From a virus (Duplodnaviria > Heunggongvirae > Uroviricota > Caudoviricetes): DNA of 4,507 nt. This document shows positions 1 through 4,507 of this stretch, in pieces. The position numbers were made by a program. The stretch's first letter is position 1. Each line of letters opens with the position of its first letter. The stretch lies in IMG/VR virus record IMGVR_UViG_2537561709_000003. One strand, written 5' to 3'.

Positions 1-3000
1 AAATCTTCACTGCCCATCAGGGGCTTGATGCCAAACTCGGCCCGATCTTCACCAAACGTTTTACACGCCACCAGAAGAGACGACCCGGCCAACCCTGAAA
101 GAACTGGCAGCGAAGCTGTCCGGAGGAGTGAATGGTTACAGTCGCTGAACTGCAGGCGCTGCGTCAGGCGCGCCTTGATTTATTAACCGGTAAACGGGTG
201 GTGTCTGTCCAGAAAGATGGTCGCAGAATTGAATATACGGCGGCTTCTCTGGATGAGCTTAACCGGGCGATCAATGATGCGGAGTCGGTACTGGGGACAA
301 CCCGGCGTCGCCGTCGTCCGCTGGGAGTGAGGTTATGAAACGAACGCCTGTCCTGATTGATGTGAACGGCGTTCCGCTTCGTGAGAGTCTCAGCTACAAC
401 GGGGGCGGTGCAGGATTTGGCGGGCAAATGGCGGAGTGGTTGCCACCGGCGCAGAGTGCCGATGCGGCCCTGCTGCCCGCGTTGCGTCTGGGGAATGCCC
501 GGGCAGATGATCTGGTGCGCAATAACGGAATAGCGGCCAATGCGGTGGCACTGCATAAGGATCACATTGTCGGGCATATGTTTCTTATCAGCTACCGTCC
601 GAACTGGCGCTGGCTGGGGATGCGGGAGACCGCAGCAAAAAGCTTTGTCGATGAGGTGGAGGCGGCCTGGTCGGAATACGCCGAAGGGATGTCTGGCGAG
701 ATCGACGTGGAAGGAAAACGCACGTTCACGGAATTTATCCGTGAAGGTGTGGGCGTTCATGCGTTTAACGGCGAAATCTTTGTGCAGCCGGTCTGGGATA
801 CGGAAACCACGCAGTTATTCCGTACGCGTTTTAAAGCCGTGAGTCCGAAACGGGTGGACACGCCAGGACACGGTATGGGGAACCGTTTTCTGCGGGCCGG
901 GGTGGAGGTCGATCGATATGGCCGTGCCGTTGCGTACCATATCTGTGAGGATGATTTTCCTCGCTCCGGGAGTGGACGATGGGAACGGATCCCGCGTGAA
1001 CTTCCCACCGGGCGTCCGGCCATGCTGCATATTTTCGAGCCGGTGGAGGACGGGCAGACCCGTGGGGCCAACCAGTTTTACAGCGTCATGGAACGGCTGA
1101 AGATGCTCGATTCCCTGCAGGCAACACAGCTTCAGTCGGCCATTGTGAAAGCCATGTATGCAGCGACGATTGAAAGTGACCTTGATACCGAAAAGGCCTT
1201 TGAATATATCGCCGGTGCGCCGCAGGGGCAGAAGGATAATCCGCTTATTAATATTCTGGAGAAGTTCTCCAGCTGGTATGACACGAATAACGTGACGCTG
1301 GGTGGTGTCAAAATTCCGCACCTTTTCCCCGGGGATGATCTGAAACTACAGACTGCGCAGGATTCAGACAATGGATTTTCGGCGCTTGAACAGGCGCTGC
1401 TGCGGTATATCGCCGCCGGTCTTGGCGTTTCCTACGAACAGTTGTCCCGTGATTACTCGAAGGTCAGTTATTCAAGTGCCAGGGCCTCTGCCAATGAGTC
1501 GTGGCGCTATTTTATGGGGCGGCGAAAATTTATTGCGGCCCGGCTGGCCACGCAGATGTTTTCCTACTGGCTGGAAGAGGCACTTCTTCGGGGGATTATC
1601 CGTCCGCCACGGGCGCGTTTTGATTTTTATCAGGCGCGATCAGCCTGGTCACGGGCAGAGTGGATTGGTGCCGGAAGAATGGCCATTGACGGGCTCAAGG
1701 AGGTTCAGGAATCGGTGATGCGCATTGAGGCCGGACTGAGCACGTATGAGAAAGAGCCGGCGCTGATGGGCGAGGATTATCAGGACATTTTCCGCCAGCA
1801 GGTCAGGGAATCTGCAGAGCGGCAAAAAGCCGGACTCTCACGTCCGGTGTGGATAGCGCAGGCGTATCAGCAGCAGATAGCGGAGAGTCGCAGGCCGGAA
1901 GAGGAGACAACACCCCGTGAGACGTAATCTTTCACACATTATTGCCGCAGCATTCAATGAACCGCTGCTTCTGGAGCCCGCCTATGCGCGGGTTTTCTTT
2001 TGCGCGCTCGGGCGCGAGATGGGGGCAGCAAGTCTTTCGGTACCACAGCAGCAGGTACAGCTTGATGCTCCCGGAATGCTGGCTGAAACGGACGAGTACA
2101 TGGCCGGAGGTAAACGACCGGCCCGTGTTTACCGGGTGGTGAACGGTATTGCTGTACTGCCGGTGACCGGCACGCTGGTGCACCGGCTGGGGGGTATGCG
2201 GCCATTTTCCGGAATGACAGGCTATGACGGCATTGTCGCCTGTCTTCAGCAGGCAATGGCGGATAGCCAGGTGCGGGGCGTACTGCTGGACATTGACAGT
2301 CCGGGCGGGCAGGCCGCCGGCGCGTTTGACTGCGCTGACATGATTTACCGCCTCCGTCAGCAGAAGCCGGTCTGGGCACTGTGCAATGACACGGCCTGTT
2401 CTGCAGCCATGCTGCTGGCGTCGGCCTGCTCCCGACGGCTGGTTACCCAGACATCCCGTATCGGCTCCATTGGCGTGATGATGAGCCATGTCAGCTATGC
2501 CGGTCATCTGGCGCAGGCCGGTGTGGATATCACGCTGATTTACTCAGGGGCGCACAAGGTGGATGGCAATCAGTTTGAAGCCTTACCGGCAGAGGTTCGC
2601 CAGAACATGCAGCAGCGCATTGATGCGGCGCGCCGGATGTTTGCCGAAAAAGTGGCCATGTTTACCGGTCTGTCTGTTGATGCCGTCACGGGAACAGAGG
2701 CCGCCGTTTTTGAAGGTCAGTCCGGCATTGATGCCGGGCTGGCGGATGAATTAGTCAATGCGTCGGATGCCATCAGTGTGATGGCCACGGCGCTGAACAG
2801 TAATGTCAGAGGAGGCACTATGCCGCAATTAACTGCAACGGAAGCCGCCGCGCAGGAGAACCAGCGAGTGATGGGGATCCTGACATGCCAGGAAGCGAAA
2901 GGACGTGAACAGCTTGCCACGATGCTGGCAGGACAACAGGGCATGAGCGTTGAACAGGCCCGGGCGATTCTGGCCGCGGCGGCACCGCAGCAGCCGGTGG

Positions 3001-4507
3001 CATCCACGCAGAGTGAAGCCGATCGCATTATGGCGTGTGAAGAAGCGAACGGTCGTGAACAACTGGCGGCAACGCTGGCGGCGATGCCGGAGATGACGGT
3101 GGAAAAAGCCCGCCCGATCCTGGCTGCTTCACCGCAGGCGGATGCCGGACCCTCACTCCGTGATCAGATCATGGCACTGGATGAGGCAAAAGGGGCTGAG
3201 GCGCAGGCTGAACAGCTGGCTGCCTGCCCGGGAATGACTGTGGAGAGCGCCCGGGCTGTGCTGGCTGCGGGATCAGGTAAGGCAGAACCGGTCTCTGCAT
3301 CCACAACCGCCCTGTTTGAACGCATCATGGCGAACCATTCACCGGCTGCGGTACAGGGTGGCGTGCCACAGACGTCAGCAGACGGTGATGCGGACGTGAA
3401 AATGCTCATGGCCATGCCATGAAGTCAGTGCTGACCATCAACAGGAGGTTTTTACAATATGGTAACGAAAAACATCACTGAACAGCGTGCGGAAGTACGT
3501 ATTTTTGCCGGTAATGATCCGGCTCATACCGCCACAGGCAGCAGCGGGATTTCCTCGGCAACACCGGCACTGACGCCCCTGATGCTGGATGAAGCCAGCG
3601 GGAAACTGGTGGTCTGGGACGGACAGAAAGCCGGTAGTGCAGTTGGCATACTGGTACTGCCGCTTGAAGGCACAGAGACGGTACTGACCTATTACAAGTC
3701 GGGGACCTTTGCGACGGAGGCAATCCGCTGGCCTGAAAGTGTGGATGAACACAAAAAGGCAAATGCCTTTGCCGGCAGTGCCCTGAGTCACGCGGCGCTG
3801 CCGTAACACGTTATCAGGCCACCGCGGTGGCCTGACTGATTTCTGAATGAAAGGAACTGATTTATGGGATTGTTTACGACCCGCCAGTTACTCGGTTATA
3901 CCGAACAAAAAGTGAAATTTCGTGCGCTGTTTCTGGAGCTGTTTTTCCGCCGTACGGTGAATTTCCATACCGAAGAGGTGATGCTGGACAAAATTACCGG
4001 AAAAACGCCGGTGGCGGCCTATGTCTCCCCGGTTGTTGAAGGAAAAGTGCTGCGTCATCGCGGTGGTGAAACCCGCGTGTTACGTCCGGGCTACGTCAAG
4101 CCGAAACACGAATTCCCCTGGAGCCGGTAAAAGGAGCCGGTACCACCCTGTGGGTTTATAACGGTCAGGGTGACGCCTATGCAAACCCGTTGTCAGACGA
4201 TGACTGGCAGCGACTGGCTAAGGTGAAGGATCTGACGCCGGGCGAGATGACGGCAGAATCCTACGATGATAACTACCTGGATGATGAAGACGCGGACTGG
4301 ACCGCGACCGGGCAGGGGCAGAAATCTGCAGGTGATACCAGTTTTACGCTGGCCTGGAAACCGGGAGAGGAAGGCCAGAAAGGGCTTATAGGCTGGTTTG
4401 AAAGCGGCGATGTCCGGGCCTATAAAATCCGTTTTCCGAATGGCACGGTGGATGTGTTTCGTGGCTGGGTCAGCAGTATCGGTAAGGCCGTGACGGCGAA
4501 AGAAGTG

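Follow-up and report, generated by a model that had tools for sequence, protein, structure and literature searches.

A phage 21-type head protease/scaffold gene carries the triplicated Tri-box module, a probable coat-binding element of both its products

The open reading frame at positions 1917-3422 of the window (the whole stretch of 4,507 nucleotides analysed here) is a nested protease/scaffold gene of the lambda C/Nu3 type, specifically the phage 21 gp5/gp6 type, and the module repeated three times in its C-terminal part corresponds by sequence and position to the Tri boxes of phage 21. As these are already annotated, the observation of a triplication is right but ordinary. We consider it probable that the Tri-box module targets both gp5 and gp6 to the shell by binding the coat protein, a role that we infer from the comparisons given below. 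The features concerned are the following.

1917-3422, plus strand: head protease/scaffold gene of 501 aa (phage 21 gp5, lambda C homologue), GTG start, reading frame intact
2809-2815, plus strand: GAGGAGG, the internal Shine-Dalgarno site of the nested scaffold gene, read directly from the sequence
2820-3422, plus strand: nested in-frame scaffold gene of 200 aa (phage 21 gp6, lambda Nu3 analogue), ATG after the ribosome-binding site (RBS)
2856-3014, plus strand: repeat unit 1 (U1), aa 314-366, with core ILTCQEAKGREQLATMLAGQQGMSVEQARAILAA at nt 2877-2978
3015-3155, plus strand: repeat unit 2 (U2), aa 367-413, with core IMACEEANGREQLAATLAAMPEMTVEKARPILAA at nt 3027-3128
3156-3311, plus strand: repeat unit 3 (U3), aa 414-465, with core IMALDEAKGAEAQAEQLAACPGMTVESARAVLAA at nt 3168-3269
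2887-2990: GenBank 'Tri1 box' (M81255.1), overlapping U1 (locus coordinate +416)
3027-3137: GenBank 'Tri box' (M81255.1), overlapping U2
3168-3281: GenBank 'Tri3 box' (M81255.1), overlapping U3
3312-3419, plus strand: C-terminal tail with an F-E/D-x-F/Y-M motif (FERIMA, nt 3315-3332) and a predicted disordered end

Pfam placed Peptidase_S49 (PF01343) at residues 146-293 of the 501-aa product (E 2.8e-35, 122 bits against a cutoff of 24.9), and the phrog_53 head maturation protease profile matched the same reading frame with an E value of 9.7e-228. Across the window, the Pfam order gpW, Phage_portal_2, Peptidase_S49, HDPD and Phage_cap_E reproduces the W-B-C-D-E synteny. The scaffold gene shares the reading frame of the C-terminal part of gp5, and its in-frame internal start with its own RBS (2809-2822), from which translation is a prediction, lies at a position identical to that of annotated gene 6. 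Positions 2820-3422 correspond to CDS 5475-6077 of M81255.1 and 5309-5911 of OL657228.1, labelled 'scaffolding protein', and the GAGGAGG is the same site as the putative gene 6 RBS in these two records. The S49 domain, the synteny and the internal RBS with its ATG thus bear out the earlier note, which had named a C/Nu3-type protease/scaffold gene. At the nucleotide level the reading frame is 98.6% identical to phage 21 gene 5/6, and its product differs from gp5 at 10 of 501 residues, the GTG start codon not counted. Phage 21 gene 5/gene 6 (M81255.1, OL657228.1) is therefore the same gene, sharing the nested start, the RBS and the positions of the three units.

In M81255.1, the Tri1, Tri and Tri3 boxes are placed in phage 21 gene 6 with the remark "function unknown; putative". 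When their coordinates were tested against U1-U3, these features did map onto the units, and a unit HMM found three units in the phage 21 protein and in the window protein. A literature search found no paper on the phage 21 head-gene sequence, so that prior knowledge of the Tri boxes comes solely from the GenBank feature table. A CII-binding-site pattern is also annotated inside the phage 21 scaffold gene; it gave 2 matches against 0.75 expected, a number equalled by 34 of 200 shuffles, and was put down to chance.

The repeat was tested by unit-by-unit Smith-Waterman alignment with shuffled controls, in place of self-BLASTP, which returned only the identity match for the whole 501-aa protein. 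Successive units begin 50 and 47 aa from each other, and the unit pairs scored 101, 87 and 97, compared to 25-27 (sd about 5) for shuffled residues (z 11-15). None of 2000 composition-preserving shuffles equalled a real score, so the similarity is not a mere effect of Ala-rich composition; this excludes a low-complexity or coiled-coil Ala/Glu-rich region without a true repeat. The module has two conserved features, the E-A-K-G-R-E turn and the P-G-M-T-V-E-x-A helix cap, and successive modules are strung like beads on flexible Pro/Gln/Ala/Ser linkers. The Arg of the EAKGRE motif reaches at least 90% conservation across units and is missing from U3, where the E. coli type reads EAKGAE. The three units need not be equivalent, since U3 of the 21 type has lost this nearly invariant residue.

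Three full copies and one partial copy had been claimed. The three full copies stood, and the fourth did not: from aa 466 onward, the tail has just five residues (ERIMA) in common with the start of a unit, and its scores did not exceed those of shuffles (z -0.3 to 0.3). Phage 21 has FEHFMA at the stretch that reads FERIMA here, and the F-E/D-x-F/Y-M motif is kept in one-unit and three-unit homologues alike. FERIMA is accordingly better taken for part of a tail motif than for what is left of a repeat. In the AlphaFold model, pLDDT is low past Nu3 residue 153.

The triplication is old: the protein sequences of the 34-aa cores are 56-62% identical, and their third codon positions, at 35-41% identity, are close to saturated. 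DNA identity between the cores is 59-67%. Tandem Repeats Finder detected no tandem array in the DNA, where repeat seeds are short, since the units have diverged too far at third positions; the repeat is visible only in protein. U1 is closest to the single unit of lambda and N15 (64-67% identity). For units 1 and 2, orthologues from phage 21, Gifsy-1 and a Salmonella homologue are 71-82% identical, compared to 44-59% for paralogues; for unit 3 the margin of orthologous over paralogous identity is small (59-61%). Of 5426 complete E. coli genomes, 1865 had the 485-nt repeat region in colinear form, and 1870 of the 1875 matching records covered at least 80% of it. Judged from these alignments, the triplication is stable in E. 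coli, with rare two-unit and four-unit exceptions. The absence of a Tandem Repeats Finder array, the core nucleotide identity and the colinear copies all argue against a recent, recombination-prone tandem duplication of DNA, and the suggestion of a recombination hotspot in the earlier note found no support in them.

Regarding the fold, the note had expected helical modules, and AlphaFold indeed gave three helices per unit. The model of U2 alone (pLDDT 90.6, pTM 0.67) placed helices at residues 3-9, 17-24 and 31-40; in the model of whole Nu3 (pTM 0.27), the units had pLDDT values of 76-81 and the linkers of 60-65. In these models the units appear as independent three-helix mini-domains, each modelled as a compact domain and not as a long coiled coil. 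Sequence searches of the PDB yielded only a chance ribosomal match and de novo designed helical repeat proteins. The latter were rejected as homologues, as the likeness is that of a generic G-x-S/T-x-E-Q-A helix cap. Pfam searches with the module at E <= 10 gave only sub-threshold noise (e.g., HHH with 15 bits, below its cutoff of 24). By these searches the module is one without a Pfam family or a solved relative; small three-helix-bundle interaction domains such as RuvA domain III, staphylococcal protein A/affibody and UBA domains are among the nearest known systems.

Lambda C/Nu3, phi80 gp5 and N15 gp5/gp6 are built alike, with an S49 protease and a nested in-frame scaffold that share a C-terminus, the gene order W-B-C/Nu3-D-E and the same tail motif. 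They differ in having one module, preceded by a Ser/Thr/Ala/Gln-rich linker of ~55 residues (about 15 aa in the 21 type), and in protein length (439-447 aa, compared to 501). The unit HMM counted one unit each in lambda, phi80 and N15 and three each in phage 21 and Gifsy-1, so the repeat number does differ among homologues. The earlier note was right about lambda Nu3, to which it gave a single unit plus a short partial one: the HMM detected exactly one unit in lambda C (aa 362-400, 64% identical to unit 1), and LDRLMQ comes after it. Apart from unit number, the head genes of lambda and phage 21 are analogous. Gifsy-1 STM2605 of Salmonella, a lambda gpC homologue of 498 aa, has three units in the same order, the first two orthologous to the 21-type units (72% and 78% identity), and the Gifsy-1 coat protein shares 84% identity with phage 21 gp7. 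However, its unit 3 retains EAKGRE and its C-terminal extension is longer.

Searching for homologues with the Nu3 part revealed rare two-unit deletion variants (P0016, P0020 and P0021) and one four-unit variant (P0027, from E. coli) whose units 2-4 are 80-85% identical, but returned mostly partial or fragmentary proteins that are unfit for a census. Copy number was therefore surveyed with a 41-position unit profile (E <= 0.001) in a library of 1.84 billion proteins, where it matched 969 cluster representatives. Among the best 150 of these 969 matches, 145 were scored: 134 had one unit, 8 had two and 3 had three; the full-length S49-bearing proteins comprised 57 with one unit, 1 with two and 1 with three. 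In IMG/VR, all 80 loci listed were 98-100% identical and offered no diversity to read.

The window copy differs from phage 21 in its setting, a lambdoid prophage of E. coli O157:H7 that has decayed. The terminase there is frameshifted, IS elements lie upstream, and a truncated coat gene, of which only the first ~84 codons are of E origin, runs into the tail-tube gene. With most of the coat gene lost, the window copy cannot work in capsid assembly. Among the phage records listed, those with a three-unit Nu3 are the ones whose coat protein is of the 21 type (84% or more identity to gp7), whereas one-unit phages carry a lambda-type E that is 61-62% identical to the 21 type (61.6% for lambda itself). 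The Nu3 and coat genes are ~440 bp apart with the D homologue alone in between, and physical proximity could suffice as the cause of this co-occurrence. The idea that repeat number alters procapsid size finds no support in the coat lengths (342 aa in the three-unit type, 341 aa in lambda) or the genome lengths (42.9-54.4 kb with three units, about 41.6-50.5 kb with one) among the phage records listed.

The reading that we favour starts from a ~40-residue module, present once in lambda, phi80 and N15, that was triplicated long ago, each copy being predicted to fold alone as a small three-helix bundle. Both gp5, the protease, and gp6, the scaffold and by far the more abundant of the two, end in the same module region, so the likely role of the module is to target both inside the assembling shell. 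It would bind the major capsid protein and bring gp5 and gp6 to the shell interior, a 21-type chain offering three coat-binding sites instead of one, and the S49 domain would degrade the module region after assembly. Coat binding, a gain from carrying three sites and proteolytic removal of the region are steps that we infer. For lambda, a two-hybrid interaction between Nu3 and E, unmapped to the module, and a dependence of Nu3 degradation on C have been reported (PMC3224144). In P22 gp8 and phi29 gp7, a contact of a small helical scaffold element with the coat N-arm has been proposed or shown (PMC11922011), and the mode of action proposed here is the same. These elements differ in consisting of two helices, present once per chain, in a scaffold without a fused protease, and neither of these P22-type helix-turn-helix coat-binding elements gave a sequence or fold match to the module.

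Self-association or portal incorporation of Nu3 could each be the role of the module instead. In the former case, the module would be a scaffold-scaffold element whose three copies build an internal lattice, with the coat contact elsewhere, for instance in the F-x-x-F-M tail. The tail is a candidate for an invariant coat contact, as it is conserved in one-unit and three-unit proteins, and the scaffold of herpesviruses, which binds the capsid protein via its extreme C-terminus, offers a possible analogy. A Nu3-Nu3 interaction and dimerisation reported for lambda also favour this alternative (PMC3224144). Nevertheless, the whole-Nu3 model, at its low pTM, contained no confident packing of unit against unit, and one unit is enough for lambda. 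Although the present data are compatible with self-association as well as with coat binding, we regard the former as rather unlikely.

Still less likely is that the module docks protease and scaffold on the portal (the gpB homologue) to form an assembly initiator, with extra copies aiding portal incorporation. In lambda, incorporation of the portal protein B is reported to require Nu3, and B, C and Nu3 to assemble into an initiator complex (PMC3224144); moreover, the phrog_21 'portal protein' profile has S49 and module-like segments, which suggests portal-protease fusions. Yet the module type tracks the coat type among the phage records listed. Phage D2 matches the gene only from about nt 198 on, which fits a putative mosaic junction farther upstream that would separate the portal from the Nu3-D-E block. 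The lambda scaffold is also produced in large excess over the 12 portal subunits.

Equally improbable is a tolerated duplication in which the two extra units serve only as a spacer, like the ~55-residue linker of lambda, phi80 and N15: the short pre-module linker of the 21 type, the natural two-unit and four-unit variants and the missing Arg of unit 3 would fit it, but the protein-level conservation of all three units despite near-saturated synonymous sites, the unit-by-unit conservation of units 1 and 2 between E. coli and Salmonella phages, the stable copy number in 1865 genomes and the high-confidence predicted fold of each unit point to more than a mere spacer.

A broader version of the coat-binding reading is speculative, and we hold it to be unlikely as a whole. 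In it, the module would be a three-helix domain, widespread but not yet catalogued, by which head proteases and scaffolds are tethered to the coat protein, and its copy number, from 1 to 4, would set how many coat subunits a single scaffold chain bridges. The trivalent 21-type chain would replace the oligomerisation needed by the monovalent lambda Nu3, and scaffold and coat would evolve in step, each fitted to the other.

The discovery value of the triplication itself is small, as it is annotated in M81255.1 and roughly one in three complete E. coli genomes has the same sequence. On the other hand, a module that has neither a Pfam model nor a solved structure occurs in roughly a thousand protein clusters, made up of head proteases and scaffolds. 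If this module is a coat-binding handle, lambda with one copy and phage 21 with three would provide a natural comparison of how scaffold valency relates to assembly fidelity.

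The window contains a lambda-type head-gene block. Within it, a 501-amino-acid ORF encodes a phage 21 gp5-type head protease (lambda C homologue) with the nested scaffold gp6 (Nu3 part), and its C-terminal part was split at recurring R/Q-I/V-M anchors into three tandem units (U1-U3), with 50 and 47 residues between unit starts.

Features of the head-gene block (window nucleotides unless stated otherwise)
132-338, gpW homologue
335-1927, lambda-family portal
1917-3422, 501-amino-acid ORF, Peptidase_S49 domain at aa 146-293
2809-2815, scaffold-gene RBS GAGGAGG, positioned as annotated in M81255.1 and OL657228.1
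2820, scaffold-gene start ATG, positioned from the same two records
aa 314-366, U1; core at 2887-2990 (Tri1 box)
aa 367-413, U2; core at 3027-3137 (Tri box)
aa 414-465, U3; core at 3168-3281 (Tri3 box)
3459-3806, head-decoration protein D homologue
3864-4130, major capsid gene E, start only

Pairwise local alignments of the three units scored 101, 87 and 97, compared to 25-27 (sd ~5) for shuffled-residue controls (z 11-15), and the observed score was reached in 0 of 2000 shuffles. The repeats proposed in the earlier note are therefore real and not an artefact of the 23% alanine content; the similarity exceeds what composition gives. The 34-residue cores share 56-62% protein identity. Tandem Repeats Finder reported no repeat in the window and the DNA repeat seeds are short, because identity between the units is 59-67% in DNA and 35-41% at third codon positions.

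At the DNA level, the ORF and phage 21 gene 5/6 share 98.6% identity, with 21 nucleotide differences (codon differences: 10 synonymous, 10 non-synonymous). The record M81255.1 ("Bacteriophage 21 head gene operon") contains three repeat_region features in gene 6, named "Tri1 box", "Tri box" and "Tri3 box" and annotated as "function unknown; putative". As the two genes align without indels, these features map onto the cores of U1, U2 and U3. The internal RBS and in-frame scaffold start are annotated both there and in the complete phage 21 genome, OL657228.1. Hence, the triplication is a known feature that was rediscovered from the sequence. The complete phage 21 record also annotates two TTGYN6TTGY matches within the scaffold gene, one of them in unit 2. 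The same two occur in the window (2825-2838 and 3059-3072, minus strand; expected 0.75); as CII-binding sites they are probably chance matches, equalled in 34 of 200 shuffles.

A hidden Markov model built from 21 units detected three units in phage 21 and in Gifsy-1, and one each in phi80, N15 and lambda C (aa 362-400), so that the earlier note was correct on the single unit in lambda. One-unit proteins carry a Ser/Thr/Ala/Gln-rich linker of ~55 residues before the unit, where the 21 type has ~15 residues. Close homologues include an E. coli variant with four units (P0027) and rare two-unit variants, namely a U1/U2 fusion (P0020), a protein without U2 (P0021) and one with an internal U2 deletion (P0016). 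A unit-profile search of 1.84 billion cluster representatives (E <= 0.001) returned 969 proteins. Local scoring of the best 150 of these gave 134 proteins with one unit, 8 with two and 3 with three (57, 1 and 1 when counting full-length S49-bearing proteins); since multi-unit proteins rank first by summed scores, few can sit lower down. Four distant relatives outside the enterobacterial clade (P0106, P0156, P0188 and P0213) have two divergent copies, separated in P0188 by a PTPPTPPTPP linker. This indicates that the module was duplicated independently in other, unrelated phage lineages, e.g., those of P0188 and P0106. In the phage collection, the full three-unit region was found in 20 of 115 matching records.

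Between phage 21-type proteins, Gifsy-1 and a Salmonella homologue, orthologous units are 72-82% (unit 1) and 71-78% (unit 2) identical, clearly above the 44-59% seen between paralogous units of a single protein; unit 3, at 59-61%, stands only slightly above the paralogues. Based on these identities, the triplication most likely arose before these phages of E. coli and Salmonella separated, and purifying selection has maintained it since. Unit 1 is nearest to the single lambda/N15 unit. In the four-unit variant, units 2-4 are 80-85% identical to each other, which points to a recent amplification. The genome data argue against a recombination hotspot: of 5426 complete E. coli genomes, 1865 contain the 485-nt region as a single colinear stretch, and shortened versions amount to a handful.

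In the E. coli 21 type, unit 3 (window 3168-3269, aa 424-427) reads EAKGAEAQAEQLA and is without the Arg of EAKGRE, a residue at least 90% conserved across units, which Gifsy-1 and other Salmonella homologues retain in their third unit. Unit 3 may have diverged functionally.

A fourth, partial copy had also been proposed. We rejected it, as only ERIMA is common with the unit start, the score is at the level of shuffled sequence and phage 21 has FEHFMA at this place. Homologues, one-unit proteins included, share a separate tail motif, F-E/D-x-F/Y-M, and we treat the supposed copy as this conserved tail rather than a repeat remnant. Four of the 10 amino acid differences from phage 21 gp5 cluster here (window 3312-3366, aa 466-484; L466M, R469H, I470F and P484A), and two of them produce the 'RIM' likeness.

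In the AlphaFold model of the 200-aa scaffold part (15 sequences only), the three units are helical and separate from each other (pLDDT 76-81), the linkers score 60-65 and the tail is disordered; with a pTM of 0.27, the model does not fix how the units are placed relative to one another. The single-unit model (77-sequence alignment; pLDDT 90.6, pTM 0.67) has three short helices at residues 3-9, 17-24 and 31-40. Near-invariant positions are hydrophobic (Ile, Leu, Met, Ala) or belong to the A-K-G-R-E turn. A Pfam search found no family covering the module, and a sequence search of solved structures found none related to it.

The repeat region is common to gp5 and gp6, and by the logic of the nested protease/scaffold gene both should thus be placed within the shell. 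In lambda, Nu3 is reported to interact with E in a two-hybrid assay, to self-associate, to be required for portal incorporation and to be degraded in a C-dependent manner (PMC3224144). The module most likely serves in coat binding and putative capsid targeting; self-association ranks second and portal docking third. Extra units acting as a neutral spacer come last, as this role fits the conservation data worst.

New circumstantial evidence comes from scaffold-coat pairing in the phage collection. About 21 records listed carry a 21-type coat (at least 84% identical to gp7), and the same ones have the three-unit scaffold; one-unit phages among the records listed have a lambda-type E (61-62% identical). 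No exceptions occurred among the rows listed. Phage D2 matches the protease/scaffold gene from ~nt 198 onward only (match row H19) and has an E of 21 type, consistent with an upstream mosaic junction that would keep Nu3, D and E together. While this co-occurrence fits a co-adapted pair, physical proximity alone could produce it, given that the two genes are just a few hundred bases apart.

An influence of repeat number on procapsid size is not indicated, as the coat proteins have 342 and 341 aa and genome lengths overlap (42.9-54.4 kb for three-unit and ~41.6-50.5 kb for one-unit phages). A change in coat-binding valency is still a candidate effect. The earlier observation is correct and its interpretation partly right: three units versus one in lambda holds, the fourth copy was rejected, and the ideas on capsid size and hotspot found no support.

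Many E. coli O157:H7 genomes carry, in the chromosome, prophage DNA with 100% identity to nucleotides 73-4507. In strain TR01 this prophage is visibly decayed, with IS elements upstream, a partial small terminase subunit, a frameshift in the large subunit and a capsid gene annotated as incomplete. Sequence of E origin ends at ~codon 84 of the capsid gene and continues into a homologue of V (major tail protein) near its second codon: identity to phage 21 E is 99% up to nt 4114, and identity to phage 21 V is 80.6% from nt 4105 (4105-4507), with an overlap of 10 nt. Compared to phage 21, ~2.5 kb are absent (remainder of E, FI, FII, Z and U). A prophage with this join cannot make heads, and the scaffold copy studied here sits in a dead prophage. 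Separately, window 1-72 is foreign to the prophage and has a 100% match in a chromosomal gene for an 'M20 aminoacylase family protein', located megabases from the prophage in complete O157 genomes; from nt 73 on, the match is to the phage gene for the large terminase subunit, at its 3' end. The 72/73 junction was either introduced during assembly or reflects a genuine rearrangement of the source genome.

Taken as a whole, the triplication is a previously annotated and very common feature. Its remaining value lies in the module itself, which carries neither family nor structural annotation.
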